Source: an uncultured Candidatus Saccharibacteria bacterium
GTDB lineage: Bacteria; Patescibacteriota; WWE3; UBA101185; UBA10185
Direction: 5' to 3'
Assembly (NCBI GenBank): GCA_964563965.1
Contig: CAZLZI010000002.1
Coordinates: 1-36,825 of the forward strand
Length of the DNA stretch: 36,825 bases
Part shown: piece by piece, positions 318-30,099 of the stretch
Layout of the letters: every line of letters starts with the position of its first letter
How positions within the stretch are numbered: the stretch's first letter is position 1
The notes under the pieces: generated by a model
Told to the model about the DNA's origin: nothing
What the model saw: only the letters and a program-made list of their open reading frames with translations
Databases searched by the model: none
Made by a program: the position numbers and the translations under genes

Positions 318-1763
318 CTAATCCGCTTTTATTGGGACTGGTGTTGTGCGCCTAAGATCTACGTATATGTTTTTAATCTTCTTATACTGAAGATACTCAC
401 TAAGATTAAAAGATTGGAAATTAGGTTTATCATACTTGGTTTGCAGATGCATGATAAAATTCCACTCCGTATCAAGCGCGGGACTATTGTTTTCGATACT
501 CTTTAGCTCTTGAAAGTGTTCGTAATGATAGCTAGAGTCAGCTGAAAGTCTTGCTAAATAAGCGTGATCTATTGGTCTTGCATGCGTACTAGGTTTATAC
601 GTATAAATCAACTTATCGAAGTTTATAATATTAATACTAACCAAAAGAATACTCGTAAAGACAATACTAGCTTCATAGAACTTTTTCATCGAAGTGCCTC
701 TATCAATATACTTGATGTATGAAACATAAATCCCGACTATCCATGCAATAACAACCAGTCCATATAACCTCTTATGAGTAAGACCCCATTGACTCATGTA
801 ATATAAATCACTACGTAAAGCCACAAGAAGCAGATAAACTAATTGGAGATAGAGTATGCTTTTTATAACATTGTAGGTTTTATCTCTAGTTTTATTATTA
901 AGCAACAACACAAAGACAACTAGACATACAGCACTTAATTGTGCAAAGACATCATTAGTCTGTTTAGAAAGATTGGTTGTTGTTGAAAAATGCGCATCTA
1001 ATTGAAAGAGACTAAATACAGAAATTAAAGTACAAGCAATTAACAAAGGTAATCTTAAATCTATCTTGTGTTGTAATGCAGTCGGGAGCGTAAGTAATGT
1101 TTTATTAGAATAGACCAAAGATAAGTATTTAAGTAGCAAGCCTGAAAAGACAATGGATGCTATAAGTCTATCGACCCTTACATTGCCACTTATATAGGTA
1201 AACAACCCCTTCAAATTAAATGCTTCAATCAAGGTCTCAAATAGCTTACCAAATTGTGGATTAGCAGAGCCAAGTAATGCGCCAACTACAGCAAAAGTTA
1301 GTAATGAAACAAGTACAACAATTAGTGTTTCGATAACCTGTTGTTTTGACTTTCGGGTAGGTTTATCAAGATAAGAAAGCTTTAGCTTAAAGATATTATG
1401 TTCTTTAAGAGTTTGCAGAATTACTAGCATTGGACTAACTATGAGACTGCTAAGATGTTCTTCTTTAGCCGAAGTAAGGGAGAGCAATGCACCTAAAAAG
1501 ATTATGCCTATGAGGTTAAGTACTATAACAATGTGGTTGGCCCTAATAATGAGAAAGAGTGCTAAAACTACTATCAGCAAGTACTCATATGTATGTAAGC
1601 GGGTTTTTTCTTGTTTGACATAATAAACTAGTGTAGCTAGATAGATGAAGAACACAGCCAAGCTTGTATTAGGGAAATAATCGCTATTAAAGAGTACAAA
1701 ACAAGTTAAAATACTAAGACCTACTGCAGAAAGAACCAAAAAATTGTTTCTTTTTGGACTCAT
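318..1763 (-). CDS. Polytopic integral membrane protein, function unknown (DUF4153/DUF4173-like by recollection only)
   Basis: 481-aa ORF made almost entirely of hydrophobic helices (e.g. LLIVVLALFLIIRANHIVIVLNLIGIIFLGALL). A -10-like box lies 6 nt upstream of ATG 1763. Confidence 0.8.
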   Translation of the reverse strand: MSPKRNNFLVLSAVGLSILTCFVLFNSDYFPNTSLAVFFIYLATLVYYVKQEKTRLHTYEYLLIVVLALFLIIRANHIVIVLNLIGIIFLGALLSLTSAKEEHLSSLIVSPMLVILQTLKEHNIFKLKLSYLDKPTRKSKQQVIETLIVVLVSLLTFAVVGALLGSANPQFGKLFETLIEAFNLKGLFTYISGNVRVDRLIASIVFSGLLLKYLSLVYSNKTLLTLPTALQHKIDLRLPLLIACTLISVFSLFQLDAHFSTTTNLSKQTNDVFAQLSAVCLVVFVLLLNNKTRDKTYNVIKSILYLQLVYLLLVALRSDLYYMSQWGLTHKRLYGLVVIAWIVGIYVSYIKYIDRGTSMKKFYEASIVFTSILLVSINIINFDKLIYTYKPSTHARPIDHAYLARLSADSSYHYEHFQELKSIENNSPALDTEWNFIMHLQTKYDKPNFQSFNLSEYLQYKKIKNIYVDLRRTTPVPIKAD

Positions 1764-1769
1764 GCTTGG

Positions 1770-1798
1770 ATGTTAGCAGATAGGATTTGCCGGTGCAA
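1770..1798 (-). promoter_or_regulatory. Sigma70-like promoter TTGCAC-17nt-TGcTAACAT ending 6 nt before ATG 1763 (leaderless transcript predicted)
   Basis: Read on the minus strand: TTGCAC (1798..1793), 17-nt spacer, TG-extended TAACAT (1778..1770), then ccaagc and ATG. Confidence 0.45.
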
Positions 1799-1892
1799 CT
1801 CCAGCAGTGGGAGCATTTTTATGCTCTTGAAGTTTGTGAGTATGGAAGGGTAGCTTTCGACCACTCTTGTGCTTAATTACTGCCTAAATCCA

Positions 1893-1921
1893 TTGACTAG
1901 TCATTTTTATCTACCTACAAT
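1893..1921 (+). promoter_or_regulatory. Sigma70-like promoter TTGACT-17nt-TACAAT upstream of the giant gene
   Basis: TTGACT at 1893-1898, exact 17-nt spacer, TACAAT at 1916-1921. ATG 1955 lies about 33 nt downstream. Confidence 0.5.
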
Positions 1922-1954
1922 TTATACAGGCGTAATTTTTATGTCCAACCTGTT

Positions 1955-4900
1955 ATGAAAACAAAAATTAGTTATTTGCGCACAAGAAGATCTAAATCAC
2001 TTATATTAAAGATTCTAATTTTACTACTGCCAATCGTGGGCGTAGGGATAATACTACACTCGGGTATCGTTAAAACCTTTGCAGAGGGGGATGTTGTCAC
2101 TACTAATTGGGATTTATCAACTCCGGGTAATTATGTGACATCGGACGATAATCTTGTTGAGATTACAGGTGGTATTGCCCAACATAAGGTACAAAACTAT
2201 GCTGATGATGCAAGTACTGGACTTCTACTCCATTTAGATGAATCTAGTGGTGCTGTTGCAGAAGACAGCTCGTCTCATGGCACAGATGGAGATGTTACCA
2301 ATGGTACATTTGGTACAGGTATTTTGAATAATGGACTGGCCTTTGGCGGAGTAAATTCCAAGCTTGAAGTAAATGATGCCTCGGGAGTTTCCCTTGGGCA
2401 GAATCATACGATAGAACTTTGGTCTAAATTAGATGAAACATTTTCTGCAACTGCTAAAGAAGCAAAATATGGCTTAGTTGATAAAGGAGATTACTCACTC
2501 TATTTCGATGATGAAACCGGCAAAATTACCTACGAATTAGCTAATTCAGCAGCAACTGAATGGACACAAGAAGCAGGAAACGACATAAATAGTAGCTGGG
2601 ATTTAAACGGCAAGTTAGCTGTGCATGATACTGTAGCTGTAGGCTCAGTGATTTACACTGCACTTGGTAATGCAGTAGGTGATGCAGAGGTTTGGAGCTA
2701 TACAGCAGGAACTTGGGCACAGATTGGGGGAGATGGCTTAAACTCAGGCTGGGATGCAGCTACTTATGAAAGTGTCTTTGCTTTAGCATCTAGCGGTACT
2801 GTGTTATATGCAGGTCTAGGTACAACAGCTGGGGATGGAGAGGTATGGAGTTGTGTAATTGCTGCAGGGTGTAATGACTGGACTAAAATCGGTGGGGATG
2901 GGATCAATACCAGTTGGGCAATAAATACTTTTGAAGGTGTGTATTCTATGACTTATTTTGGTGGTAACCTCTACGCTGGTGTTGGAAACACTGCAGGAGA
3001 TGCCGAGGTATGGCGTTGGAACGGCAGCTCTTGGACAAAAATTGGTGGTGATAGCTTACTTTCAGGTTGGACTACAAACTATGATTTGGTTTATGCAATG
3101 ACTAATGACGGTACAAATCTCTATGTTGGCCTTGGACTTACAGCCACTGAATCAGAGGTGTGGATGTGGAATGGTACCGTGTGGTCTAAAATAGGTGGCG
3201 ATGGGGTGAGCTCTAGCTGGAACACAGATTATGAATATGTTCTATCCCTTGATTATTTTGGTACAAGTCTTTATGTAGGACTAGGTAGTTCAGCAGGAGA
3301 TGCCGAGGTTTGGAGACTTTCATCTGGCACCTGGACCAAGATTGGCGGGGATGATTTAAATTCTGGCTGGACAACGGTTGGGGCATATGAAGGTGTCTAT
3401 TCACTTACTAATGATGGAACTAACCTATATGCAGGTCTAGGTGCTTCAGCAGGTGACAATGAGGTTTGGATGTGGAACGGTTCAGTTTGGGCTAAACTTG
3501 GTGGCGATGGTCTAAATTCCAGTTTTACAAACACACATACTTACGTCTCTGATCTTTATTTTGCAAATAACACTTTATATACGGGACTTACTACTACTAA
3601 TAATTCTGCAACCATGTGGACATATACAGAAGGAGCTTGGGCACTTATTGCAGGCAATTATGTAAAAAAAAGCTGGGGTTACTATAACTTACAATCAATC
3701 GAAGTTATGCAAGTATATGGGGATAATTTATATGCAGGCAGTGGATATACTGTTGCTGGAAATGCTTTAGTTTGGAAATTTAATGGCACTTCTTGGGAAC
3801 TCATCGGAGGACAAGGCTTAAATAATAGCTGGGGTATAGGTACATACGAGATTGTTTATTCTATGAAAACATTTGGGAATGAACTGTATGTTGGCTTGGG
3901 AAGTACAGCTGGTGATGCAGAAGTGTGGAAATGGAATGGCTCTAGTTGGATTCAAGTAGGAGGTGATAGTTTTAACTCCGGTTGGACAACTGGGTACGAA
4001 CAAGTAACTTCCCTTGCGGCTGATGAGAATTATCTCTACGCGGGACTTGGCAACAGTGCAAATGATGCAGAAGTATGGAGATGGAATGGTACAGCATGGG
4101 GTAAGATCGGTGGAGATAATTCTAATTCAGGTTGGGCTACTAATTATGAAATTGTCCAAGCTATGGTGCCGTTCAATGGTTATTTGTATGCGGCTTTGGG
4201 AAATACGGCAGGGGATTCTGAAGTATGGAGATGGAATGGTACAGTCTGGGCAAAGATTGGTGGAGATACTGCAGGTTCAAGCTGGGGAGCTACTATTGAA
4301 ATTGTAGATTCACTAATCGTTTATAAAGGTGAACTATTTGCATCCTTAGGCAACAGCACAGGAGATGCGCAAGTTTGGAAATATAATGGATCAACATGGG
4401 CACAAGTTGGTGGCGATGATGTAAATAGCAGTTGGACTAGCGGTACATTTGAACGAGTTCGAGCCATGGCAGTTTATAACGGTAAACTGTATGCTGGCCT
4501 TGGTACTACAGCTGGGGAAGGTGAAGTGTGGCGATATGATGGCTCTAGTTGGGAGAAGGTTGGGGGAGATACGATAAACTCAAGCTGGGCAAACAACGTC
4601 ATTGAAAGTGTCCATTCACTTACAGTTTATAATGGAAAACTGTATGCAGGGCTTGGCGAAACTGCCAACGTTGATCCTGCTGTCTGGTCCTATGGAGGAA
4701 ATAGTATCCTACGCTCGACTGCCTCTTCTTTTAATACTGATTGGAGACATATAGCAGCCACTTATAACGGATCGTCAATGAAACTTTACATAAATGGCAC
4801 TCTTGATACTCAAACGAGTGCCTCAGTCTCAGTCCCTGATTCATCGCTTGATGTATTAATTGGCTCGACCTATGGTAGTCCCTCACACGGTAAACCTTCA

Positions 4901-7837
4901 GGTTACTTTACAGGTAGTTTAGACGAAGTACGGCTAAGTTCAACTCCACGAACCTCTTTTAATACAACTGCCTATTCTGCTTCCCCTCAAACAGTAACCC
5001 CGCTTACTGCTGTTTATACAGAAGACATTGCTAACTATTCAGCCTTTAATGCTACAGAAGTATTAAATGGGGGCACAGTAACTTACAGACTGTCTAATGA
5101 TGGGGGGAGTACATGGAAGTATTGGAACGGTTCAGCTTGGGCTACGTCAGCGTCTCTTGCCAATGCGAATACTTATACCGATATACACACTAATATTGAG
5201 GCTTTTCCTGTAACTACAGGAGGATTTAAGTGGCAAGCTGTCTTAACTGGTGATGGTACGCAGCAAGTTCAGCTTGATCTTGTAAGTCTGTCAGCCATCG
5301 AAGATATAGAAAATCCGAATCCGCCATCGTTAATTGTTGCGCTTAATCAAGCTGGTGGTGGAACTTCACTTACCTCGACTGAATGGTATGCATATTCGTC
5401 TCCTTCTTTTACTTGGTCAGGAGCAACTGATGTTGGTGATGCAGGTATTGCAGGCTATTATGTATATTTTGGCACTGATAGCAGTGCAGTACCCTCAACA
5501 GCCGGTAATTTTCAAGCGGGAACAACATATACAGCAACTAGTCTAGTCAATGGCAGTACCTACTATTTAAGAATACAAACAAAAGATAATGCTCAAAATG
5601 TAAGCACACCGTATAGTGCCTTTACGTATAAATTTGATAACTCAGTACCCACTAACCCTAGTACTATTACTGTAACTCCTACTGGGTATGCAGCCACAAA
5701 TTCATTTACATTTGCTTGGCCTACTTCGGGAGATGGTATAGCTACAGATTCAGGTTCTGGTATTGCTGGTTATCAATATAAGACAGGGGCATCAAGCGGT
5801 GTGTTAAGTGAATGGTCCTCGGTCACCACAGCAAATTCAATTACAATCGATTCAGCAGCCTATTCTAGTGAAGTAAACACATTCTATTTACGAGTTATCG
5901 ATGAGGCAGGAAACACCGCGGCAACACCATTGTCTGTTAATTATTATTATGCTGGGGATGGTCCTTCAGTGCCTAGATTTGTAACTGCTACCCCATCATC
6001 AAGTACGACAAATTCATTTGCCTTTTCTTGGCAAGCACCAGAGAATTTTTCAGGCAATGCATCAGATTTAACATACTGTTATTCAATAAATAGTTTGCCT
6101 TCAGAGTCGACATGCACTTATACAAGTGCGGGTGCTACGTCATTATCTGCCAGTGCTTTTGCAACGCAAGTTGGGCTTAATACTTTTTATGTAGTTGCAA
6201 AAAACAGTGATGATGTGGGTGGCTCTATAAACTACGGTGCTTATGGTTCAGCTACCTTTACTGCAAATACCTCAGCACCAGGGATTCCGGTTGGGCTTGA
6301 GATATCAGATGTCTCAATTAAATCTCAAGAGGCATGGCGACTAGCACTGTCATGGGCAGTGCCTGAAGATATAGGCTCCGGTGTTTCTTCCTATAAAGTT
6401 TATCGGGCTGATGAAGATACAGAGTCAGAATATACTTATCTTGCATCGGTAAACTCCAGTACTGCATCAACTGGAGCTGCCTATATAGACACAGAACTAT
6501 TACAGCAAAATTATTATTATAAGATTAAAGCTTGTGATAGTGTCTCTAACTGTGGAGCTTTTACCTCATCAGTAGTTTTACTCCCAACTGGTAAATTTAC
6601 AGAAGCCGCTGCCATAGAAGATGATCCGAAAGTCACAAGTATTACAACTAAACAAGCAACCGTTTCATGGTCGACAAATCGAACAAGTGATTCTAAAGTT
6701 CAATACGGAAAGAGTTCAGATGACTATTTCGACGCTGAACCATCAAACTCTACGCAAGTTACTGCCCACGAAATCGTGCTTACCAATTTAAGCCCTGGGA
6801 CCAAGTATTATGCTGTTGCCAAGTGGACTGATGAGGATGGTAATACCGGACTTAGTGATGAGTTTACATTCACTACACAACCAGCCCCCACAGTTACTGA
6901 TCCATCAGTTAAACAGGCTGGTATCACCACTCTTACACTTCAATACACGGTTAAAGATGCCTCAAAGGTAAAAATTTACTATGGTAAGACTTCTGCGTTT
7001 GGTGCATCGCTTGAGCTATCTACTTCAACAAAATCTACAACTTACGCAACTACACTTGATGACTTAGAAGATGGTACTAAATATTATTACAAAATAAATA
7101 CCTTTGATAGCGAAGGTGAAGAATACGAAGGAAGTATATTATCCTTTGAAACTTTACCAAGGCCAAAGATAGCCGATGTTAAAATACAGCAAATTAAAAA
7201 TTCAGCCCAACCCTCAGTTCTTGTTTCGTGGACGACTAATACTGAAGTTTCTTCTATCGTAACTTATGCCCCGACATCAAATCCTGCGGATACCAAAGAT
7301 GAGGTTAATGTAGCACTTATCAAAGGTCTCCACCGAGTTCTCATTAAAAGTCTTTTGCCTGAAACACCATATACTATAATTGTAAAAGGTAGAGATAAAG
7401 CTGGTAATGAGGCTCAAAGTGATCCGCAGAAGATTACAACTGCAACTGATACTCGTCCGGCTGAACTTACTGATTTAAATGTTGAGCCAAGTATTGCTTT
7501 ATCTCAAAATAAAGAAGCTACCGCTCAACTGGTAGTAAGCTGGAATACAGATGAACCTGCAACATCACAGGTTGAGTTTGGAGAGGGGACTGGGTCTACC
7601 TATTCACAAAAATCTCAAGAAGATAAAAATTTAACCTTTAACCATGTTGTAGTTATCTCAAATCTTAATACCTCTAAAGTTTACCATTTGCGAGCTAGCT
7701 CAAAAGATAAAGCTGGAAATACTGCTACATCCGTTGATACAGTTACTATAACACCAAAAGCATCGGAGAATGCACTTAACCTTGTAATTACTAATCTTGG
7801 CGAAGTCTTTGGATTTCTAAAAGGAGTTGAATACTAA
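1955..7837 (+). CDS. Giant (1960 aa) membrane-anchored surface protein: LamG-like, 14 Kelch-like beta-propeller blades, Asp-box module, about 8 Fn3-like domains
   Basis: N-terminal hydrophobic anchor at aa 15-35. LamG (Laminin_G_3)-like N-half at aa ~88-200. 14 units of ~50 aa (LYAGLGxTAGDAEVWRWNGxxWxKIGGDxxNSxW) at aa ~205-915. LamG C-half signature WRHIAATYNGSSMKLYINGT...FTGSLDEVRLS at aa ~926-996. Asp-box LSNDGGSTW at aa 1046-1054. Repeated Fn3-like modules at aa ~1120-1935, the last four resembling purple-acid-phosphatase N-terminal type Fn3 (SWSTNxxSDSKVQYG). Confidence 0.95.
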   Translation: MKTKISYLRTRRSKSLILKILILLLPIVGVGIILHSGIVKTFAEGDVVTTNWDLSTPGNYVTSDDNLVEITGGIAQHKVQNYADDASTGLLLHLDESSGAVAEDSSSHGTDGDVTNGTFGTGILNNGLAFGGVNSKLEVNDASGVSLGQNHTIELWSKLDETFSATAKEAKYGLVDKGDYSLYFDDETGKITYELANSAATEWTQEAGNDINSSWDLNGKLAVHDTVAVGSVIYTALGNAVGDAEVWSYTAGTWAQIGGDGLNSGWDAATYESVFALASSGTVLYAGLGTTAGDGEVWSCVIAAGCNDWTKIGGDGINTSWAINTFEGVYSMTYFGGNLYAGVGNTAGDAEVWRWNGSSWTKIGGDSLLSGWTTNYDLVYAMTNDGTNLYVGLGLTATESEVWMWNGTVWSKIGGDGVSSSWNTDYEYVLSLDYFGTSLYVGLGSSAGDAEVWRLSSGTWTKIGGDDLNSGWTTVGAYEGVYSLTNDGTNLYAGLGASAGDNEVWMWNGSVWAKLGGDGLNSSFTNTHTYVSDLYFANNTLYTGLTTTNNSATMWTYTEGAWALIAGNYVKKSWGYYNLQSIEVMQVYGDNLYAGSGYTVAGNALVWKFNGTSWELIGGQGLNNSWGIGTYEIVYSMKTFGNELYVGLGSTAGDAEVWKWNGSSWIQVGGDSFNSGWTTGYEQVTSLAADENYLYAGLGNSANDAEVWRWNGTAWGKIGGDNSNSGWATNYEIVQAMVPFNGYLYAALGNTAGDSEVWRWNGTVWAKIGGDTAGSSWGATIEIVDSLIVYKGELFASLGNSTGDAQVWKYNGSTWAQVGGDDVNSSWTSGTFERVRAMAVYNGKLYAGLGTTAGEGEVWRYDGSSWEKVGGDTINSSWANNVIESVHSLTVYNGKLYAGLGETANVDPAVWSYGGNSILRSTASSFNTDWRHIAATYNGSSMKLYINGTLDTQTSASVSVPDSSLDVLIGSTYGSPSHGKPSGYFTGSLDEVRLSSTPRTSFNTTAYSASPQTVTPLTAVYTEDIANYSAFNATEVLNGGTVTYRLSNDGGSTWKYWNGSAWATSASLANANTYTDIHTNIEAFPVTTGGFKWQAVLTGDGTQQVQLDLVSLSAIEDIENPNPPSLIVALNQAGGGTSLTSTEWYAYSSPSFTWSGATDVGDAGIAGYYVYFGTDSSAVPSTAGNFQAGTTYTATSLVNGSTYYLRIQTKDNAQNVSTPYSAFTYKFDNSVPTNPSTITVTPTGYAATNSFTFAWPTSGDGIATDSGSGIAGYQYKTGASSGVLSEWSSVTTANSITIDSAAYSSEVNTFYLRVIDEAGNTAATPLSVNYYYAGDGPSVPRFVTATPSSSTTNSFAFSWQAPENFSGNASDLTYCYSINSLPSESTCTYTSAGATSLSASAFATQVGLNTFYVVAKNSDDVGGSINYGAYGSATFTANTSAPGIPVGLEISDVSIKSQEAWRLALSWAVPEDIGSGVSSYKVYRADEDTESEYTYLASVNSSTASTGAAYIDTELLQQNYYYKIKACDSVSNCGAFTSSVVLLPTGKFTEAAAIEDDPKVTSITTKQATVSWSTNRTSDSKVQYGKSSDDYFDAEPSNSTQVTAHEIVLTNLSPGTKYYAVAKWTDEDGNTGLSDEFTFTTQPAPTVTDPSVKQAGITTLTLQYTVKDASKVKIYYGKTSAFGASLELSTSTKSTTYATTLDDLEDGTKYYYKINTFDSEGEEYEGSILSFETLPRPKIADVKIQQIKNSAQPSVLVSWTTNTEVSSIVTYAPTSNPADTKDEVNVALIKGLHRVLIKSLLPETPYTIIVKGRDKAGNEAQSDPQKITTATDTRPAELTDLNVEPSIALSQNKEATAQLVVSWNTDEPATSQVEFGEGTGSTYSQKSQEDKNLTFNHVVVISNLNTSKVYHLRASSKDKAGNTATSVDTVTITPKASENALNLVITNLGEVFGFLKGVEY
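2567..4699 (+). repeat. Intragenic tandem array of 14 diverged ~150-153-nt units encoding Kelch-like blades
   Basis: The conserved Trp of the (A)EVW motif falls at aa 247, 298, 353, 403, 453, 505, 555, 607, 658, 708, 758, 808, 859 and 911, a spacing of 50-55 aa. An identical 25-mer occurs at 4070-4094 and 4220-4244, offset by exactly 150 nt. Confidence 0.9.
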
Positions 7838-8610
7838 TGCCTGCAGTCATAAGAGTAGAAAACTTACAAAAATCTTTTAGAGTAGGAGTTCAAGATATAC
7901 CGGTTATAAAAGGTGTGACGTTCCAAATAAACACTGGGGACTTTGCCGTTATAGTTGGAGCATCTGGGTCAGGTAAATCCACACTCCTCCATATGATTTT
8001 AGGACTTGAAATTCCATCTGCTGGCGAGGTTTATATTCTTGAAAACGATATCTATAAATTAGGCAATGAAGATGACAGGTCTAAGTTTAGAAAAAGGCAT
8101 GTAGGTATGGTTTACCAGCAACCTAATTGGATAAAATCTATTACTGTAATTGAAAATATTGCATTCCCTCTATTGCTATTAGGTATGGATAAAGTCAGCG
8201 CTATTATGAAAGCAAGTACCTTGTTACTTGATTTGAAGTTGCAGAATTGGGCACATTATCTGCCAACTGAACTCTCAGGCGGTCAACAACAAAAGATTGC
8301 ATTGGCACGTGCACTCATTACTGATCCTGATATCATTATTGCAGACGAACCTACAGGTAATTTAGATTTTGAATCGGGTCAGGCATTGATGCAGCAACTA
8401 CTGGATCTTAATAACAAAGGCAAGACTATTTTAATGGTTACACATGATTTAGAATATTTAAAGTATGCAAAAACTGCGATTAAAGTGTTTGACGGAACAA
8501 TTGCAGGGATATATTCAGGTCAAGAAAAAGAAGAGTTTCAAGGTAGTTTTTTAGGCAAGAAAAGGACCATAGCTGATGAGGCTGCTCAATCTTCTACTTC
8601 GAATAATTAA
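7837..8610 (+). CDS. ABC transporter ATP-binding protein, MacB/LolD/FtsE type
   Basis: Walker A GASGSGKST, signature LSGGQQQKIALARAL, Walker B IIIADEPTGNLD, H-loop VTHD. The ATG overlaps the giant-gene stop (TAATG at 7835-7839). Confidence 0.93.
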   Translation: MPAVIRVENLQKSFRVGVQDIPVIKGVTFQINTGDFAVIVGASGSGKSTLLHMILGLEIPSAGEVYILENDIYKLGNEDDRSKFRKRHVGMVYQQPNWIKSITVIENIAFPLLLLGMDKVSAIMKASTLLLDLKLQNWAHYLPTELSGGQQQKIALARALITDPDIIIADEPTGNLDFESGQALMQQLLDLNNKGKTILMVTHDLEYLKYAKTAIKVFDGTIAGIYSGQEKEEFQGSFLGKKRTIADEAAQSSTSNN

Positions 8611-10669
8611 AGCACCCCTTAACATCTTTGTACTGCTGCGCGGTATAAAAGACATGAGCCGGGAATTTGTTATTTATAATATTTTGATCCTGCTCAATGT
8701 TTTTTCATTTAGCATTATTGCCTTACTTAGCAAACTAAGAGTCTTTCCTTTCTTTCCTGTTTCGAAATTTCAGACAGCCTTCTTGGGCCATGTAACAAAG
8801 ATAACAAAGATGGTTGATAAAAAGACAGATCAAATCAGTAGAACAGATCTTATCCAACTCTCTATGAAAAATATGCTGGTAAAAAAAACACGGACTTTGG
8901 TAACCATCGGTGGTGTTTCTATAGGTATTGGAGCTATCGTCTTTCTAGTTTCGATCGGGTATGGTTTGCAAAATGTTGTTATCTCAAGAGTTGCTCGGCT
9001 TGATGAATTAAAACAAGCTGAAATAACCCCGCAAGCTGGTTCGAAAGTTAAAATTGATGACAAAATAATAGCTGATATTAAAGAGTTCACTAACGTCTCG
9101 GATGTTTTACCGGTTATTGCAGCAGTAGGGCGCGTTAATTACAAGAACTCAGTAACAGATATGGCTGTTTATGGTGTTACAACAGGCTATCTTGAAAAAT
9201 CGGCTATCAAACCTGTTAAAGGTAAAATCTTTTTAAGCAATGACTTATCTATAAAAGTCAAAAATGTTGATACTAATCCTCAAGGAGAAGTTGCAGGGGC
9301 ATCTACCAAGACCAGCTTTATTTTGGGTGAAACTTTAGGGCAAGCTGAAATTGAGCTGGATGCTAATAAATGGATTCGAGTCAGAGCAACCCCATCACCT
9401 TCTGGTGCTGTACTTGGCTATACTCGAAAGCTTAAAGGTACTCAATTTGGGGAAGCAATAATAGGAGAGAGTTACGAATCAGATACACCAACAGGGACAT
9501 ATGTAAAAAATGAACAAGGTGAGGATTTAGGGCTTTGGGTAAAAAGTAGTGTTGCGTTGTGGCAAGAAAAAGCATGTGATGACCAAGAACTCACTTGTGT
9601 GGATGGTAAATATCTTGAAGTACAAGATGCAAGTGGAGAACAAATGATAAGAGAAGGCTATATGGCTGTGGTAAATATGAAAGCTGATGTGTCAAATTCT
9701 ATTTCTCTTGGAACAGTCTTAGGTACCTCGAGCTCAATTCTTGCAGGTGATATTCTTGCAGCTGAAACTTCGCCAAGTGCCAATACAGTTATTATTGATG
9801 AAGGTGATTGGGTTAGAATTGTTGATCCTAATGCGGATAAAAAAGATACAGATGTAAAACGAGTGCCCCTGCATTCATCGGCAGTAAAACAAGCGGTAGT
9901 AAATCGAGCTGCCATCAAGGTTCTTAATATTGATGAGAATCTAGCTATTGGAAAAAGATTTAAAACCTCATTTATTATTCCAAGTTCTCTAGTAGCGGAC
10001 TCCAAACAAAGAATAGAATCAGAGGATGTTGAATATGAAATTGTTGCTGTAGTACCTGATGATTCAACGCCATTATTTTATGTTGCTTTAGTTGATCTTA
10101 GATCTTTAGGGACATCAAGCTTCTCACAAGTAAAAGTTGTGGTGAATGAAACAGAACAATTATCAGATGTCCGTAAGAAAATTGATGCGATTGGTTTTTC
10201 TAGTAGATCGGTTTCCGATACAGTTGAGCAGATCTCAAGTCTATTTAGTACTTTGCGGATCGTGCTAGGTATTATGGGTATGGTTGCCTTAATTGTTGCA
10301 TCTCTGGGTATGTTCAATACGCTTACAGTCTCACTTTTGGAAAGATCACGAGAGGTGGGTTTGATGAAAGCATTGGGTATGACAACTGCGGAAGTCCAGC
10401 AATTGTTTTTAACAGAATCAGTCATTATGGGAACAGGGGCAGGTGTTTTTGGTTTACTTGTTGGTTATTTACTAGGTAAAACACTTAGCTTAGTTTTGTC
10501 CACCATGGCTGTGTTTAAAGGAGAAGGTTTTTTAGATATTTCACACATCCCCTTTACTTTTGTAGTAACTATTATGATCCTCTCAACTCTTGTAGGGATA
10601 TTTACTGGTATATTTCCAGCACGTCGCTCAAAGAAAATCTCAGCATTAGATGCTCTGAGGTATGAATAG
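8576..10669 (+). CDS. MacB/FtsX-family ABC permease with an enlarged (~430 aa) extracytoplasmic domain
   Basis: The N-terminal MKNMLVKKTRTLVTIGGVSIGIGAIVFLV and the C-terminal FtsX TM bundle ending ISALDALRYE are typical of MacB/LolCE permeases. The first core TM lies at aa ~107-131 of the 697-aa ORF and the next at aa ~560. The start is uncertain: ATG 8576 (35-nt overlap with the ATPase gene), ATG 8654 or ATG 8810. Confidence 0.88.
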   Translation: MRLLNLLLRIIKAPLNIFVLLRGIKDMSREFVIYNILILLNVFSFSIIALLSKLRVFPFFPVSKFQTAFLGHVTKITKMVDKKTDQISRTDLIQLSMKNMLVKKTRTLVTIGGVSIGIGAIVFLVSIGYGLQNVVISRVARLDELKQAEITPQAGSKVKIDDKIIADIKEFTNVSDVLPVIAAVGRVNYKNSVTDMAVYGVTTGYLEKSAIKPVKGKIFLSNDLSIKVKNVDTNPQGEVAGASTKTSFILGETLGQAEIELDANKWIRVRATPSPSGAVLGYTRKLKGTQFGEAIIGESYESDTPTGTYVKNEQGEDLGLWVKSSVALWQEKACDDQELTCVDGKYLEVQDASGEQMIREGYMAVVNMKADVSNSISLGTVLGTSSSILAGDILAAETSPSANTVIIDEGDWVRIVDPNADKKDTDVKRVPLHSSAVKQAVVNRAAIKVLNIDENLAIGKRFKTSFIIPSSLVADSKQRIESEDVEYEIVAVVPDDSTPLFYVALVDLRSLGTSSFSQVKVVVNETEQLSDVRKKIDAIGFSSRSVSDTVEQISSLFSTLRIVLGIMGMVALIVASLGMFNTLTVSLLERSREVGLMKALGMTTAEVQQLFLTESVIMGTGAGVFGLLVGYLLGKTLSLVLSTMAVFKGEGFLDISHIPFTFVVTIMILSTLVGIFTGIFPARRSKKISALDALRYE

Positions 10670-11386: not shown

Positions 11387-11466
11387 AAGTGCATTATATA
11401 GCCTAATGCTAATTTAGACTACTTGAGGTATTTTTGTGCACACTATAATGGTGTATAATTTGCCCA

Positions 11467-17147: not shown

Positions 17148-18072
17148 GTTTTTTTAGCTTCGCAACAAAAAAGCCTTCAAACAAGTCAGTTGGGAGAATT
17201 CTAATACATTTTGTAATGTCCTCTGTAAAGAGAGTATTATTCCAAGAAATTAACGCTGGTATAAAATTTTCTTTGATCAATTTGGTATCGATAGCCATAA
17301 CCCTTAAATCTTTATGTTTATTTAGCAGGTAAGCAATCACTTCTTCATTTTCCTCTGGAGAGTAGGTACAAGTTGAATAAACAAGCTCACCGTCTTCGGC
17401 AAGCAACTCATAGGCACAATTTACAATTTTCTTCTGTAAATTTCTTAACTGCTTAACTTTCTTCTGACTCCAGTACTTGAGTGAGTCTGTATTTGCCAAA
17501 TTGATAAGACCCTCAGCACTACACGGTGCATCAATTAGTATTTTAGTAAACTTTTGAGGAGTGACATACATGAGTCCTTGAGCAGGTGTGTTAAAGGCTT
17601 GCGTGACGCTAACATCTAACTGTGCAAGTAGTGAGTTAAGGTTATTAAATCTCCGCTTATCTACCTCATTGATGTATAGCTGCGCTTGATTATCTGTTTC
17701 CCTAGCAATCATAAAAGTTTTTCCTCCTGGAGCCGCACACATATCCAGCACATAGTCACTAGCATGTGCATCTAAAACCAAAGGGGGAATCAAACTTGAG
17801 TAATTTAAGATGTAATAATTACCGTCTTTAAAAAACGGCAGTGCGGTTACACGATCTTTCCCTGACTCAATACTGTAACAATATTTGTTATCAGCAATGG
17901 GAATTAAAGTTGCATGCTTGTGTACTTCATCTAGAACTTCTTGCCAGTTGGCTTTAAGAGTATTGAGCACTAGTATTGATTTATGGGAATAAGATAATAG
18001 TTGCGTGACAACTTCATCATTTAGTCCTGTAATCATTTTAAATTTTTCTTTAAATGTAGTTTTAGTTGTCAT
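17137..18072 (-). CDS. NOL1/NOP2/Sun (RsmB/RsmF-like) RNA cytosine-C5 methyltransferase
   Basis: SAM motif DMCAAPGGKT and catalytic motifs ILIDAPCSAEG and LVYSTCTYSPEENEEV. The 3' end overlaps the leuS 3' end by 11 nt. Confidence 0.88.
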   Translation of the reverse strand: MTTKTTFKEKFKMITGLNDEVVTQLLSYSHKSILVLNTLKANWQEVLDEVHKHATLIPIADNKYCYSIESGKDRVTALPFFKDGNYYILNYSSLIPPLVLDAHASDYVLDMCAAPGGKTFMIARETDNQAQLYINEVDKRRFNNLNSLLAQLDVSVTQAFNTPAQGLMYVTPQKFTKILIDAPCSAEGLINLANTDSLKYWSQKKVKQLRNLQKKIVNCAYELLAEDGELVYSTCTYSPEENEEVIAYLLNKHKDLRVMAIDTKLIKENFIPALISWNNTLFTEDITKCIRILPTDLFEGFFVAKLKKLKH

Positions 18073-18080
18073 TTAAGTTG

Positions 18081-18109
18081 TTGACTAGTTATTACTTTTT
18101 AAGTATGTT
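18081..18109 (+). promoter_or_regulatory. Sigma70-like promoter TTGACT-17nt-TATGTT, 7 nt upstream of ATG 18117
   Basis: TTGACT at 18081-18086, 17-nt spacer, TATGTT at 18104-18109, then aagaact and ATG. Confidence 0.5.
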
Positions 18110-18116
18110 AAGAACT

Positions 18117-18872
18117 ATGACACAAAATAATAAACCATGTAATTATACCTATTATTTCCTTTTAGTTCTTCTGGCTATTACCTCATTTGGTTTTGGTTCC
18201 ATGTTTTCTGAGAATAAATATCTGAAAGCTAATCCGTCAAATGTAGCGGCTAATAATAATGCTCCGGCCCAACCTCAAGCTCCGCAACAACCTGCTAAAG
18301 CAATTGACTTAGAGGCAATTGTAACAGGACTTGATCTTGACTACAGTGCAGTCGAAGCTTGTGCCTCATCGGACAAATATAAGCAAAAAGTTGCAGATCA
18401 AGCCGCGGCGGGTAAAGCAGCCAATGTTCAAGGTACACCAGCAGTCTTAGTTATAAACAGAGAAACTAATAAATCTCGAGTACTTCCAGGTGCGGTCCCA
18501 TTTGAAAGCATTAAAACTGCAATTGATGAGGTTCTAACTGGAGAAAATGATACCCCTGCAACGCCAAATGCTTCAGAAATAGATCCTACAAAGATCCCTG
18601 AAGTAACTGCTGAAGACTGGGTAAAAGGTAACAGAGATGCAAAAATAGCATTGATCGAGTACTCTGATTTTGAGTGTCCATTCTGTCAACAATTCCATGC
18701 TTCTGCTCAACAAGCTTTGGATACTTATCCAAACGATTTACAATGGGTTTATAGGCACTTTCCGCTAGATTTCCATCCTAATGCCAATAAGTATGCCTAC
18801 ACAGCTGAATGTGCTGCTGAATTAGGTGGTAATGACGCATTCTGGGCCTTTGCAGATAAGATATTCGAATAA
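18117..18872 (+). CDS. Membrane-anchored DsbA-like thiol:disulfide oxidoreductase with permuted domain order
   Basis: TM anchor YYFLLVLLAITSFGFGSMF and an Ala/Pro/Gln-rich linker. The CPFC active site (nt 18675-18686) lies in the C-terminal half. The cis-Pro loop segment VQGTPAVLV lies in the N-terminal half. The start is taken as ATG 18117 from the promoter geometry; the ORF opens at 18066. Confidence 0.8.
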   Translation: MTQNNKPCNYTYYFLLVLLAITSFGFGSMFSENKYLKANPSNVAANNNAPAQPQAPQQPAKAIDLEAIVTGLDLDYSAVEACASSDKYKQKVADQAAAGKAANVQGTPAVLVINRETNKSRVLPGAVPFESIKTAIDEVLTGENDTPATPNASEIDPTKIPEVTAEDWVKGNRDAKIALIEYSDFECPFCQQFHASAQQALDTYPNDLQWVYRHFPLDFHPNANKYAYTAECAAELGGNDAFWAFADKIFE

Positions 18873-22081: not shown

Positions 22082-23125
22082 GTGAAAAAGTTACTTTTAT
22101 TTATAATACCTTTAGTTCTAATTGTCTTAGCTGTGTTTATCTCTTCGAAAACACGGTCAAAATCTATCACGGTAGAAAAGGCTTCAAGCGAGAAACAAGT
22201 TATTGCCAAAACAATTTCAGCATCTGGGGAAGTCACTTCAAAGTATCTCTATGATTTAGCCTTTGAAGGAACAGGCCGAATTAATCAGCTCTCTGTAGCA
22301 AAAGGCGATCCAGTTACTCAAGGCATGTTACTGGCCAGTGCGGTTAATCTTTCGGAATACAACGATATCCAAGCTCTGCGAGATACGCTTGATATCGCAA
22401 AACGTGACAAAGATATCTATGTAGAATTGTATGATACTAAGCGCTCATCTGTCGGGGGAGAAAATGAATATGAAGCGAATGTTCGTCGATTTGATGAGTA
22501 TATTAGTAGGGCAACTGCAAATTACACTTCTTCACTCAATGCTCTCTCTAGGCTTCGCATAACTTCTCCGATAGATGGGACTGTTGTGGACGTACTAAAA
22601 GAACAAAATGAGGTAGCTGCTACGGGACAACCTGTTGTCCGCGTTGCGGATCTATCTAGTTTGGTTTTTGAGGTGTTAATAGATCAAGAAGATTTTGGAC
22701 TGCTTAGTGTTGGGGATAGTGTCGAGCTGACACTTGATTCCTATAAAGACAAAACCTTTAGTGGTGAGGTTTCAGCTCTTCCTCTTTTTGCTCAAGAAAC
22801 TGGAGATTTTGAAGTAAATATTGCTATCACTGATTCAGATAAACCAATTTTGTTAGGGATGAAGGGTGATGCTACTGTCAAGATTGATGAAACTTCAAAA
22901 AAAGTTACTGCTATTGCCTTTGATTTACTCAATGAAGACGATTCTGGTTATTTTCTTTGGATAGATGACAAGGGCATTTTAAAAAAGAAGAAGATAGAGA
23001 TAGGTCTGGAGGGAGACTTTTATACTGAAGTCAAAACTGATATCAGTGGACTAACATTAGTAATACCAGCTCAAGACAGTCAACCTGTTGAAGGTTTGAA
23101 GGTTCGCTATGCAAAAAGTAATTGA
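22082..23125 (+). CDS. HlyD/MacA-type periplasmic adaptor (membrane fusion) protein
   Basis: N-terminal TM, lipoyl-like ASGEV...GRINQLSVAKGDPVTQGMLLA, ITSPIDGTVVDV and a beta-barrel segment. GTG start, 7 nt after TATAAT (22069-22074). Confidence 0.88.
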   Translation: MKKLLLFIIPLVLIVLAVFISSKTRSKSITVEKASSEKQVIAKTISASGEVTSKYLYDLAFEGTGRINQLSVAKGDPVTQGMLLASAVNLSEYNDIQALRDTLDIAKRDKDIYVELYDTKRSSVGGENEYEANVRRFDEYISRATANYTSSLNALSRLRITSPIDGTVVDVLKEQNEVAATGQPVVRVADLSSLVFEVLIDQEDFGLLSVGDSVELTLDSYKDKTFSGEVSALPLFAQETGDFEVNIAITDSDKPILLGMKGDATVKIDETSKKVTAIAFDLLNEDDSGYFLWIDDKGILKKKKIEIGLEGDFYTEVKTDISGLTLVIPAQDSQPVEGLKVRYAKSN

Positions 23126-23777
23126 GGCTAAAAATGTCTCTAAACTATATAAAATCGGTAAAAACGATATTACCGCTGTCAAAAACATTTCACTGCAAAT
23201 TAACCAAGGTGAATTTGTAGCTATTGTTGGCAAATCAGGATCCGGTAAATCCACACTCATGCATATGCTAGGGCTGTTAGATACACCGACTACAGGGGAA
23301 CTTTATTTAAATGACAGACTAGTTTCAAGCCTAAAAGAAAGAGAACTAGCCAGTCTTAGGAATAAAGAAATTGGATTTGTATTTCAATCATTCAATCTAT
23401 TAGCTAGAACCACAGCACTTGATAATGTTATTTTACCGTTAAAGTACTCATCGGTGCCAAGAAACTTATGGAGGCAGAAGGCTGAAGAAATGCTTGCACT
23501 TGTTGAACTATCCGAACGCAAATTAAATAAATCAAATGAATTATCAGGAGGGCAGAAACAACGAGTAGCTATAGCCAGAGCACTTGTGAATGATCCTTCC
23601 ATCATCTTTGCAGACGAACCTACCGGTAATTTAGACTCGAAAACTGGAGAAGACATTGAGCACTTATTTCAAAAACTAAATGCATTAGGTAAGACTATAG
23701 TTCTTGTAACTCATGATGATGAATTAGCGCAAATTGCCAAGCGCAAGATTGTCATTAGGGATGGGGAAATTGTTTAA
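23109..23777 (+). CDS. ABC transporter ATP-binding protein, MacB type
   Basis: GKSGSGKSTLMHMLGLLD, LSGGQKQRVAIARAL, IFADEPTGNLD, VTHD. 17-nt overlap with the adaptor gene. Confidence 0.95.
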   Translation: MQKVIEAKNVSKLYKIGKNDITAVKNISLQINQGEFVAIVGKSGSGKSTLMHMLGLLDTPTTGELYLNDRLVSSLKERELASLRNKEIGFVFQSFNLLARTTALDNVILPLKYSSVPRNLWRQKAEEMLALVELSERKLNKSNELSGGQKQRVAIARALVNDPSIIFADEPTGNLDSKTGEDIEHLFQKLNALGKTIVLVTHDDELAQIAKRKIVIRDGEIV

Positions 23778-24964
23778 TGCTTTCCAAGTTTGCAGAAGGC
23801 GTATCAACTTCTGTAGTTTCTATACTTGCAAATAAACTCCGAGCCTTTCTTACAATGCTTGGTGTTATTATAGGTGTTTTTTCAGTTGTTACACTTATCT
23901 CTCTTGGTAGAGGTTTTCAAAACTATATTAAAGGGGAGTTTGATCAGTTAGGATCTAATCTTCTCTTTGTCGCTCCTGGAAGATCAAATGTGGGTGGAGA
24001 TCCTGCGCTGTCTTTAACACGCAATAAACTTGGCAAAAAACATGTTGATTTAATACATAAATATTCTATGGAGTATGTTGCATACGCTGTACCAAGTATT
24101 AACTTGAATAACGATGTTACCTATAAAGGTAAAACATTTCTTGCGGAGATATTAGGTTCGACGCATGATATGCCTAATATCTTTAATTATCAGATTGATA
24201 CAGGACGCTTCTTTTCCAAAAGTGAGGTTACTGCTAAAGCTAGACTTGCAGTTATAGGGCCTAACGTTGCCAAAGAACTATTTGCTGGTGTTAATCCAAT
24301 TGGCAGGTCTATAGTTATCAATGAAAAAAGTTTTAATGTCATTGGCATCTTTCAAGAGAAGAGTCCTGATTATGATAATCAAATACTTACGACCTACACA
24401 GCCCTTGAGTCAACCTTTGATATTAAGCGCTACACCTACATTGTACTCAAGCTTAAAGAGGACTCCCCTATGGAAATTGCAAAAAAACAAGTTGAATTGG
24501 CTTTACTTCGTGATCTCGAAGAAGATGATTTTTCAGTTCTATCTCAAGAAGATATTTTAGCAACTGTACAACAAATATTAGGTTTGTTAACCACAGGCTT
24601 GGGAGCAATTGCTGCAATCTCACTCTTAGTAGGTGGCATCGGTATTATGAATATTATGTTGGTTACAGTAACAGAGAGAACCAAAGAAGTTGGCCTTCGC
24701 ATGGCGCTAGGCGCTACTAAGATAGATATAGCTTTTCAATTTTTAATGGAAGCAGTTCTTATAAGTGTACTTGGCGGGATAGTTGGTTTAATCTTTGCTT
24801 ACTTAGTATCAATTGGACTCTCGCAGTTTATTCAAACTGAAGTCCCTCCAATGACTATCTTTTTATCATTTTTGTTTTCTGTTGTTGTAGGAGTAATTTT
24901 TGGAACTTATCCTGCTATCATGGCTAGTAAGAAAGAACCTATTGAGGCACTTAGATATGAATGA
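23777..24964 (+). CDS. MacB/FtsX-family ABC permease (paralog 1)
   Basis: LRAFLTMLGVIIGVFSVV at the N-terminus, a ~220-aa extracytoplasmic domain, and an FtsX bundle ending EPIEALRYE. TAATG start/stop overlap. Confidence 0.93.
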   Translation: MLSKFAEGVSTSVVSILANKLRAFLTMLGVIIGVFSVVTLISLGRGFQNYIKGEFDQLGSNLLFVAPGRSNVGGDPALSLTRNKLGKKHVDLIHKYSMEYVAYAVPSINLNNDVTYKGKTFLAEILGSTHDMPNIFNYQIDTGRFFSKSEVTAKARLAVIGPNVAKELFAGVNPIGRSIVINEKSFNVIGIFQEKSPDYDNQILTTYTALESTFDIKRYTYIVLKLKEDSPMEIAKKQVELALLRDLEEDDFSVLSQEDILATVQQILGLLTTGLGAIAAISLLVGGIGIMNIMLVTVTERTKEVGLRMALGATKIDIAFQFLMEAVLISVLGGIVGLIFAYLVSIGLSQFIQTEVPPMTIFLSFLFSVVVGVIFGTYPAIMASKKEPIEALRYE

Positions 24965-26132
24965 AGTCTTATTAACATCTCTTACATCAATTAGAGCAAA
25001 TAAACTCCGCTCATTCCTAACCATGTTGGGGGTTATTATAGGTGTGTTTGCAGTAGTATCCATGTTGTCTTTAGGAGTCGGGGTACAAAACTATATCGCA
25101 AATAGTTTTAATTCACTTGGTACTAATTTGTTATTAGTAGCTCCTGGCAGATTTAACTTCAGGGCAGATCCGTCCAATTCTTTTTCCAGAAATAAGCTTG
25201 AAGAAAAACATGTCGAACTAATTAAAAGATATGCATCGGATGTAATACTGGCAGTTTCGCCGTCAATTAGAACCGGTGCCACCATTCAGTACCGAGACAA
25301 AGAATTCTTTGGAACGGTCATTGGGATTAATTATGATGCGATAAATGTTACCAACTACGAAGTGCTCCAAGGTAGAAACATATCTCGAACCGATGAGAAA
25401 GCAGCTAATAAATATGCACTAATTGGTGTTGAGACAAAAAAAGAGCTTTTCGGTGCAGATAAAGCCCTTGGCAAGACTATCAAGATCAATAAAGAGTCTT
25501 TTACCATTATAGGAGAAATAGCCAAAAAGAATCAGTCATATGATCAAGGTGTTATAACTCCAGTTACGACTGTTAAAGAAGTTTTTGGGATAGAAAATTA
25601 TTCCAATATTGCAGCCAAGCTGAAAGATCCCAAGGATGATACTAAAGCACGTAAAATCATGGAGATGGCTCTTCTTCGAGATTTAAAGGCAGATGACTTT
25701 ACAGTTATTTCGCAATCCGAATTACTGGCATCATTTCAAAACATATTAGGATTACTTACGGCAGGTATAGGTATGATTGCAGGTATTTCGCTCTTGGTTG
25801 GCGGGATTGGGATTATGAATATTATGCTTGTTTCTGTAACAGAAAGAACAAAAGAGATTGGCCTTAGAAAAGCGGTTGGTGCTACCCCCAGAGTAATTGT
25901 CATACAGTTTTTAAGTGAAGCAATCATTATTAGTGTTGCCGGAGGACTCATAGGCATACTTCTGGCGTTTTTGCTTACCGCCTCGATCAAGAGCTATATT
26001 GAGGCAAGTGTTCCGCTCTATGCAATAATCATTGCTTTTGTGTTTTCTGTATCTGTAGGTGCGGTTTTTGGCACATATCCTGCAATTAAAGCTGGGAAAA
26101 AAGACCCGATTGAAGCGTTAACTTTTGAATAG
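24957..26132 (+). CDS. MacB/FtsX-family ABC permease (paralog 2)
   Basis: MNEVLLTSLTSIRANKLRSFLTMLGVIIGVFAVV... ending DPIEALTFE. ATG 24957 overlaps the upstream stop by 8 nt (ATGAATGA). The ORF opens at TTG 24900. Confidence 0.92.
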   Translation: MNEVLLTSLTSIRANKLRSFLTMLGVIIGVFAVVSMLSLGVGVQNYIANSFNSLGTNLLLVAPGRFNFRADPSNSFSRNKLEEKHVELIKRYASDVILAVSPSIRTGATIQYRDKEFFGTVIGINYDAINVTNYEVLQGRNISRTDEKAANKYALIGVETKKELFGADKALGKTIKINKESFTIIGEIAKKNQSYDQGVITPVTTVKEVFGIENYSNIAAKLKDPKDDTKARKIMEMALLRDLKADDFTVISQSELLASFQNILGLLTAGIGMIAGISLLVGGIGIMNIMLVSVTERTKEIGLRKAVGATPRVIVIQFLSEAIIISVAGGLIGILLAFLLTASIKSYIEASVPLYAIIIAFVFSVSVGAVFGTYPAIKAGKKDPIEALTFE

Positions 26133-26669: not shown

Positions 26670-26746
26670 GCCTCCGTAGCTCAGTGGATCAGAGTACGCG
26701 GCTTCGGACCGCGGGGTCGGGGGTTCGAATCCCTCCGGGGGCGCCA
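26670..26746 (+). tRNA. tRNA-Arg (anticodon TCG), CCA encoded
   Basis: Hand-folded cloverleaf: acceptor GCCTCCG/CGGGGGC, anticodon stem CGCGG/CCGCG with loop CTTCGGA, T arm GGGGG-TTCGAAT-CCCTC. Confidence 0.9.
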
Positions 26747-26838
26747 TAGTAACTAGTGACAAGTAGAGATTGGCATAATAAGTCTAACCATATTATTTTA
26801 AATTAAGTCTAAAGAGCTATGGATTTGTCAACTCCTTA

Positions 26839-27672: not shown

Positions 27673-27700
27673 GTCATAATTTTCATGTTATGATATTTGT

Positions 27701-28921: not shown

Positions 28922-28956
28922 TAATCGCCTAAGTTTGCTAGAATAGAACGGTTCAT

Positions 28957-29031: not shown

Positions 29032-29130
29032 GAACAAGCTAAAACGTCACGTAATACCCTATAACCTAAGTATTATATAGAAATACTATTTAAACTTCTC
29101 TAACCTATAAAAGTATAGTAGAATACCACA

Positions 29131-30078: not shown

Positions 30079-30099
30079 AATGTAGTAAAATGAACGTAT

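Follow-up and report, generated by a model that had tools for sequence, protein, structure and literature searches.

The nesting of one protein domain within another is already known: in prolyl oligopeptidase, a seven-bladed propeller lies between the N- and C-terminal segments of one host domain. In RTX adhesins such as Aeromonas AhLap and Vibrio FrhA (PMC12077191, PMC10865825), a binding module whose N- and C-termini lie next to each other buds from a split beta-sandwich, and this split-domain unit is carried on a long string of immunoglobulin (Ig)- or fibronectin type III (Fn3)-like extender domains. ATP-binding cassette (ABC) transporters of the MacB type, including FtsEX-PcsB/EnvC, LolCDE and MacAB, act by mechanotransmission on dedicated extracytoplasmic partners that are encoded next door (PMC5985334, PMC6355983, PMC7668044). 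Here we describe a locus that combines features of these systems, on a 36,825-nucleotide stretch of DNA (contig CAZLZI010000002.1 of assembly GCA_964563965.1, positions 1 to 36,825 of the forward strand; hereafter the window) from an uncultured Candidatus Saccharibacteria bacterium (GTDB lineage Bacteria; Patescibacteriota; WWE3; UBA101185; UBA10185). The giant gene at 1955..7837 (+ strand, as are all parts of the locus described below) encodes a protein of 1960 amino acids, which we call the fibre, and is followed by genes for an ABC ATPase and a MacB-type permease. Our reading, to which we assign a probability of about 0.6, is that this is an exported fibre of a Saccharibacteria-type patescibacterium with a head consisting of a split LamG domain and twin propellers, an Fn3 spacer, and a tail that is recognised by the dedicated permease.

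A preliminary description of the protein, made from the sequence alone, had placed a propeller array within a loop of one LamG sandwich, and profile, solved-structure, predicted-structure and comparative evidence all support this placement. In whole-protein scans against Pfam and NCBIfam, neither LamG nor Kelch was matched, and only Fn3 and Pur_ac_phosph_N matches after residue ~1560 were returned; the LamG domain was missed because it is split. When fragments were scanned against Pfam, residues 905-1015 alone matched Laminin_G_3 (PF13385) at positions 58-146 of 151 with 55.9 bits, and residues 45-215 alone matched no LamG family. With the repeats deleted in silico (residues 45-205 joined to 915-1015; the excised construct), the match extends in one stretch over positions 4-146 (66.7 bits, E = 3e-18, cut-off 27.6), so that the two pieces jointly cover one domain rather than representing two complete ones. 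The excised construct exceeds the PF13385 gathering score across the domain, and in the native polypeptide 714 residues (201-914) separate the first ~54 of the 151 profile positions from the rest. The N-terminal half (residues 88-200; 2216..2554) is matched as LamG only once joined to the C-terminal half (residues 915-1000; 4697..4954). A profile of nine propeller-excised orthologs aligns with the solved LamG structure 4qvs_A over residues 2-220 of 227, continuously across the junction (E = 3e-13), with the N-terminal half covering 4qvs_A residues 2 to ~112; the LamG domains of pappalysin likewise align across the junction. Queries with either half match adjacent segments of a single domain in the contiguous LamG proteins P0092 and P0103.

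Structure prediction gave a concordant picture. AlphaFold2, supplied with intact homologs as alignment rows beneath the excised window sequence, folded the excised sequence into one jelly-roll domain (predicted local distance difference test [pLDDT] 81.7, predicted template modelling score [pTM] 0.81), with low confidence only at the artificial junction. In Foldseek searches this model matches the concanavalin A (ConA)-like jelly rolls of clostridial neurotoxin Hc (the Hc-N subdomain) over 215-235 of 258 columns, with template modelling scores of 0.50-0.59. The native model of residues 45-1015 has a pTM of 0.85, and both LamG halves have pLDDT values of ~75-96 (74-95 for the N-terminal half); their strands lie at the positions seen in the excised model, offset by 713 residues. 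The insertion point falls between strand KITYEL (residues ~190-195) and strand SILR (residues ~917-920), and in 4qvs_A a short turn connects the corresponding segments. Residues ~88-200 and ~915-1000 are thus, very probably, the halves of one Laminin_G_3/ConA-like jelly roll, with twin propellers predicted to bud from one of its beta-hairpins. Once the insert is removed, profile and predicted fold agree with those of described Laminin_G_3/ConA-like lectins over nearly the whole domain; the fibre domain differs from them in its interruption by 714 residues.

This arrangement is widespread. Scanning one genome per species, we found a relative with the split-LamG head type in at least 186 species-level genomes, and carried out a detailed comparison on the best 80 of these. 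In 76 of the 80 loci, the N-terminal half, 14 repeat units and the C-terminal half occur in one open reading frame (ORF) of 1905-2127 amino acids (stop-to-stop), with the array at the same insertion point and gaps of 1-3 amino acids between half-domain and unit matches. The carriers are nearly all Saccharibacteria or other Patescibacteria, and the closest is 74% identical to the window protein; database entries name these relatives 'LamG domain-containing protein' or hypothetical. Conservation is even along the whole protein, with a majority fraction of 0.56-0.73 across 68 orthologs. At two loci (L001 8001-14011 and L004 8001-15221), head and stalk are called as separate ORFs, of 1166+837 and 1128+1217 amino acids respectively; such two-ORF fibres in some metagenome-assembled genomes may reflect frameshift, assembly error or a real split. 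Contigs labelled 'uncultured Gammaproteobacteria', 'Bdellovibrionales' or 'Pseudomonadales' also carry the cassette (L011, L016, L019, L024, L035, L045, L049, L059, L061, L068, L072, L073 and L077), and these are probably mislabelled or mis-binned assemblies. The annotation table of Southlakia, which is possibly incomplete, holds no PF13385, ConA-like, PF16656 or PF10102 entry; no transposon-sequencing phenotype can therefore be transferred from that organism. Its genes SEML1_0890/0891 (Fn3, 'VCBS lectin-like'), which are essential (Cell, 2023), were considered as orthologs and rejected, since they encode proteins of 196 and 566 amino acids of a different kind. The large FhaB/DUF2341 proteins of Patescibacterium danicum (PMC11809585) are also different proteins.

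The insert between the LamG halves (residues 201-914) consists of 14 regular units of ~50 amino acids, at residues 206-919, with the consensus IGGDxxNSxW...Y.xV.SL...G..LYAGLG.TAGDAEVW.WNG..W.K. The model places 56 strands in this interval, corresponding to 14 four-stranded blades; the last unit contributes only three strands, and the strand that precedes unit 1 (TEWTQEA, residues 201-207) carries the signature of the missing fourth. The preliminary description had allowed for either two seven-bladed propellers or one ring of 14. We favour two propellers, the first comprising the closing strand TEWTQEA and units 1-7 (residues 201-564; 2555..3646) and the second units 8-14 (residues 565-914; 3647..4696), because the top Foldseek matches of the array, in a sequence-like alignment, are all tandem 7+7 propellers (Elp2, GH74, Aip1 and UTP proteins), because it is units 7 and 8 that diverge (unit 7 being the least conserved), and because seven-unit arrays of the same repeat occur both in relatives and free-standing elsewhere. 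Relatives with seven (P0024) or eight (P0020) units are rare and hold their arrays at the same LamG insertion point; in the single propeller of P0024, the last unit resembles unit 14 of the window protein and the first resembles unit 8 among others. The 14 blades of the preliminary description thus stand, and the single 14-bladed ring is disfavoured. Tandem seven-bladed pairs (Aip1, 1nr0; Elp2, 5m2n; GH74, 2ebs) are the best structural matches of the predicted rings, but they share only 9-14% identity with them, show no detectable sequence relationship, and are not nested in another domain as the fibre's pair is; for the GH74 glycosidases in particular, the likeness is structural only, with no family membership by profile. 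In prolyl oligopeptidase, the host is an alpha/beta-hydrolase and a single propeller gates its active site, whereas here a lectin-type jelly roll hosts two.

The units had been called Kelch-like, and while the 14 consecutive four-stranded blades of ~50 residues were recovered, those of the window protein do not reach a Kelch profile threshold. Their matches to curated families are weak (Kelch_4, E = 0.085; Kelch_3, E = 0.058 in two of 13 double units; Rax2, E = 0.003 in five of 13). A relative with the same repeat, P0047, passes Kelch_3 at 2e-8, and this transitive connection is the only link of the window repeat to Kelch. The blade repeat, divergent and Kelch/Rax2-like, falls within no curated family. 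P0047 (L003 6001-8283) itself combines ~12 units of this repeat with a C-terminal FtsX domain in one ORF, a single occurrence; an overlapping 272-amino-acid ORF upstream may be its N-terminal part, and the protein may be a 'Rosetta stone' fusion that connects propellers of this type with MacB-type permeases. Tail proteins of phages or gene transfer agents (GTAs) also carry the repeat: P0052, P0056, P0059, P0060, P0065 and P0067 end in a propeller of 6-7 units that are 40-48% identical to the window blades. The assignments of these tail proteins are phrog_4271 and Phage-tail_3 + Rcc01698_C; the window propeller region itself has no match in PHROGs.

The remainder of the protein agrees with the layout first described, in which the LamG halves and the array between them are followed by an Asp-box, Fn3 modules and an amphipathic tail. 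Ahead of the LamG domain lies a beta-hairpin module, WxFSxxGxYT...VE..G.A..K (residues 45-87; 2087..2215), which is conserved in A1/A2, corresponds to strands 24-27 and 30-33 of the excised model, and is also found ahead of other head types. The single Asp-box of the fibre, SNDGGSTW at residue 1047, lies outside the propellers in a module of ~108 amino acids (5000..5323) that is conserved in homologs and matches no Pfam family. The stalk (residues 1124-1936; 5324..7762) consists of eight Fn3/Ig-like modules of ~100 amino acids; about eight Fn3-like domains had been expected, and six of the eight have profile support (fn3, Pur_ac_phosph_N, fn3_4 or Big), another is weakly supported and the remaining one not at all. 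The C-terminal tail SENALNLVITNLGEVFGFLKGVEY (7763..7834), ending VFGFLKGVEY, is a helix that is amphipathic but not transmembrane-like by hydrophobic moment, and it is conserved in orthologs and paralogs. As the preliminary description had stated, a motif scan found no LPXTG-like sorting motif, and Pfam, NCBIfam and motif scans revealed no lipobox, wall-binding or S-layer-homology domain; the fibre thus lacks the C-terminal LPXTG-type signal of sortase-anchored Gram-positive surface proteins. The only six cysteines form three close pairs (residues 300/306, 1375/1387 and 1527/1533), a pattern that fits extracytoplasmic disulfides, and a DsbA/thioredoxin-like gene is present at 18066..18872 of the window.

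A search with residues 1000-1960, covering stalk and tail, returned 252 proteins, of which all the named ones are from Patescibacteria. The heads joined to the shared stalk and tail are split LamG, DUF2341, canonical Kelch, FG-GAP/VCBS, or of no recognised family, and the tail motif, judged by eye, is present in nearly all complete C-termini. The Asp-box/Fn3 stalk and the C-terminal tail form a scaffold that is constant across Patescibacteria and on which heads are interchangeable.

We found that the stop codon of the fibre gene overlaps the start codon of the ABC ATPase gene (TAATG; ATPase 7837..8610), which is followed by the gene for a MacB_PCD/FtsX permease (8576..10669). The fibre-ATPase-permease order is kept in 70 of the 71 orthologous loci with enough flanking sequence, and no terminator-like site was found on the + strand before the end of the permease gene. 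Upstream, a promoter-like site, TTGACT-17-TACAAT (1893..1921), lies 34 nucleotides from the fibre start codon; it is the top-scoring sigma-70-like match within 1500-11500 (10 of 12 positions), and is a consensus match only. The fibre gene is predicted to be translationally coupled to the ATPase and permease genes. The ATPase matches ABC_tran, and its best NCBIfam matches are LolD, FtsE and MacB, with LolD the closest. The permease is a four-helix FtsX-type protein with a large loop between transmembrane helices 1 and 2, and the solved structures closest to it are those of YtrF, MacB, 5xu1 and LolC. Both proteins have the features of MacB-type (type VII) systems, but all matches fall below equivalog cut-offs and we assign no named orthologue. 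At 697 amino acids, the window permease ORF is longer than those of most relatives (~400-470 amino acids), and only the first ~110 residues of its extracytoplasmic domain (~430 amino acids) match MacB_PCD. Its first ~96 residues hold extra hydrophobic segments, and the start codon is uncertain, with Met78 and Met97 as candidates.

The association with a transporter extends beyond the split-LamG head. Three paralogs with VCBS, Kelch and DUF2341 heads each directly precede their own ABC and permease pair (3/3), and one contig of 949,910 bp carries at least two such cassettes. We consider it probable that fibre, ATPase and permease form a functional unit. A second, canonical MacB-type system is present in the window at 22082-26132 (+), with an HlyD-like adaptor (22082..23125), an ABC ATPase (23109..23777) and two MacB_PCD/FtsX permeases (23777..24964 and 24900..26132); in position, this adaptor gene corresponds to the giant gene of the fibre cassette, which likewise lies upstream of its ATPase gene.

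Two types of tail can be distinguished among the fibres: type A, ...TPKAxxNALxLVIxNLxxxFGFLxxxx, to which the window protein belongs, and type B, ...IIGRASDSVLTIxLNxLxxVFG[FL], which ends at that point. Type A is always accompanied by a long permease (~520-775 amino acids stop-to-stop), the class of the window permease, and type B always by a short one (~380-500 amino acids), in all 71 orthologs and all three paralogs, whatever the head. This pattern fits recognition of the tail by the permease. Since each fibre has a dedicated MacB-type pair, docking, actuation or extraction through the tail is suggested; docking of the tail with the permease is a tentative proposal that we rate at somewhat below an even chance.

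The K/R-rich N-terminus (1955..2086) contains the only hydrophobic segment of the protein (residues 16-34 by hydropathy; h-region ~19-20 amino acids), as the preliminary description had noted in calling it a single N-terminal anchor. In all orthologs, however, a site of the form (I/V/L/T)(F/L)A|(S/A/E)(D/G), VKTFA|EGD in the window protein (residues 40-44|45), stands right before the conserved mature start, and the segment may therefore be a cleavable signal peptide instead. For this reason, the reversed topology that had been proposed, with binding modules next to the membrane and the stalk distal, is unproven. The N-terminal head is variable and interchangeable, whereas stalk and tail are constant and co-vary with the permease; this favours a cell-proximal C-terminus, and hence the conserved tail as the cell-proximal end of the fibre.

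Taken together, these features would be consistent with a cell-surface binding fibre in which the LamG domain presents the twin propellers to recognise a conserved ligand, either a glycan or an envelope component, the Fn3 modules provide spacing, and the C-terminal helix is recognised by the dedicated MacB-type permease, which would hold, position or actuate the fibre by mechanotransmission. All head types are lectin- or propeller-type modules, the same propeller repeat occurs at the distal end of phage/GTA tail proteins, and split domains are known to display binding modules in RTX adhesins; these points speak for a binding or adhesion role, which we regard as an evenly balanced call. The arrangement, which the preliminary description did not recognise from described families, is not without precedent, because the presentation of ligand-binding modules in a split beta-sandwich has been documented in RTX adhesins (PMC12077191). 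It differs from these in that the host domain is not an Ig-like extender but a LamG jelly roll, that the insert is a 714-residue double propeller, that RTX repeats and a type I secretion signal or apparatus are absent (no family of either kind was matched), and that the envelope is Gram-positive-like and the associated ABC system is MacB-type. FtsEX-PcsB/EnvC, LolCDE and MacAB (PMC5985334, PMC6355983, PMC7668044) share with the cassette the ATPase class, a MacB_PCD and FtsX permease with a large extracytoplasmic domain, and a dedicated partner encoded next door; their partners, however, are a hydrolase activator, a lipoprotein or an adaptor, not a 2000-residue Fn3 fibre with a lectin/propeller head. 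The fibre cassette lacks an HlyD-type adaptor, and here we infer the interaction between partner and transporter. A literature search brought up no published account of twin propellers interrupting a LamG domain, and none of the conserved tail or the fibre-MacB cassette.

Several observations weigh against this interpretation, and some of them favour a fibre held by its N-terminus. Directly before the hydrophobic segment, many (type-B) orthologs (L008-L084) and several paralogs with other heads (P0207, P0191, P0205, P0212, P0209, P0187 and P0174) carry a His/Trp-rich motif, HHHxAxRPHxxLxxxxxWYxxWHxWxxHxxVH, which fits a retained anchor or, alternatively, an extended signal peptide whose n-region is functional. 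If the segment were an uncleaved signal anchor, the LamG/propeller head would sit on the membrane, possibly beside the permease in the manner of N-terminally anchored membrane-fusion adaptors, with stalk and tail reaching outward or looping back; the length of the h-region is compatible with this, and an N-terminally anchored HlyD-like adaptor is encoded upstream of the ATPase in the canonical MacB operon of the window. The window protein is without the His/Trp motif, however, the signal-peptidase-like site precedes the mature domain in all orthologs, and a variable N-terminal module combined with a constant stalk and tail usually indicates that the variable end is distal and the constant end proximal, so that we consider this topology rather doubtful. 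Nor is the head hypervariable: across the 68 orthologs its variability does not exceed that of the stalk, in which it differs from many host-range determinants. In the annotation table of Southlakia, which is genetically tractable, no family member is listed. On a neighbour-joining tree built from the head region, itself unreliable, only ~4 switches are needed to explain the covariation of tail and permease, and the loci are physically adjacent; the association could therefore reflect co-inheritance of neighbouring DNA. Finally, the excised construct is artificial, and in the full-length model the packing of the LamG halves against each other is presumed from pTM, pLDDT and strand positions.

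Other explanations can be considered for the transporter and for the head. The fibre might be cargo: after Sec export, its tail helix would stay in the outer leaflet until the MacB-type transporter extracted it in a Lol-like manner and handed it to the wall or S-layer, or released it. The closeness of the ATPase to LolD, the relationship of the permease to LolC/E and MacB, the amphipathic character of the tail and its tracking of permease class are all compatible with this; yet the fibre has no lipobox and no domain that would hold it to a wall or S-layer, and the transporter matches lie far below the Lol equivalog cut-offs, which makes cargo an unlikely role. The ABC and permease genes might also encode a general-purpose efflux or resistance pump that shares a transcript with the fibre gene and has no functional connection with it. 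MacB-type pumps are common, and the window contains a second one, which lends the idea some credence. Such a coincidence would nevertheless have to account for adjacency in nearly every orthologous locus and in the paralogous cassettes across distant Patescibacteria, for a transporter pair of its own beside each fibre or tandem fibre pair, for the stop/start overlap, and for a match of tail type to permease class without exception, and it is accordingly most improbable. Double propellers of glycoside hydrolase family 74 (GH74) rank with the best structural matches (E ~1e-16), and LamG/ConA-like domains often bind glycans, so the twin propellers could be imagined as a GH74-like cleft that cleaves a polysaccharide, for example a host wall glycan, with LamG as a carbohydrate-binding module. 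Identity to GH74 is only 12-14%, however; non-enzymatic WD40 pairs (Elp2, Aip1 and UTPs) match equally well, the blades lack the Asp-box motif of GH74 blades, the sole Asp-box lies elsewhere, and no glycoside-hydrolase family was matched in the Pfam scans of the whole protein and its fragments. An enzymatic role of this kind is thus very unlikely. A last alternative denies the split itself, regarding the two pieces as separate or partial domains and the C-terminal one as a truncated LamG that folds with something else. The N-terminal piece alone indeed matches no LamG profile. A jelly roll of the ConA-like fold interleaves early and late strands, however, and its C-terminal half alone cannot fold; together with the joined Pfam match, the 4qvs_A alignment, the contiguous homologs P0092 and P0103, the models and the Hc match, this has already largely refuted the idea, and we give it hardly any weight. 

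Elsewhere in the window, a DUF4153 protein of 480 amino acids (318-1763, -) is encoded divergently from the fibre gene, and is not kept beside the cassette in the four relatives inspected. The interval 1501-6500, the head-coding part, has a G+C content of 0.41-0.43 against 0.35-0.38 around it, and its GC skew is also higher (+0.22); both are probably due to the Gly/Ala/Trp-rich composition of the repeats. At 26670-31517 and 33300-34628 (-) there are five tRNA genes (Arg, Lys, Leu, Leu and Gly) scattered among protein genes and, close by, a gene for a large serine recombinase (Resolvase, Recombinase and Zn ribbon), which may mark the boundary of a mobile element.

The locus provides a clear example of domain nesting, with a very large insert, 714 residues in two propellers, placed inside a beta-hairpin of a lectin fold, and a host domain that is invisible to standard domain scans is a caution for automated annotation. 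We regard the cassette as the more interesting part of the finding. To our knowledge, type IV pili are the only well-studied factor in the episymbiotic attachment of ultrasmall bacteria, and the cassette provides concrete candidates for attachment or envelope functions in these organisms; it may also represent a new class of partner for mechanotransmitting ABC transporters. A bolder and, in our view, improbable extension is an ATP-powered adhesin, in which a MacB-type 'motor' would grip the C-terminal helix of a ~2000-residue Fn3 fibre with an exchangeable head and ATP hydrolysis would mechanically deploy, tension, retract or release the fibre during host attachment. If true, this would be a previously unrecognised class of surface machine in Patescibacteria, distinct from pili, sortase-anchored proteins and type I secreted adhesins. 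The cassette may thus help Patescibacteria to attach to other cells.

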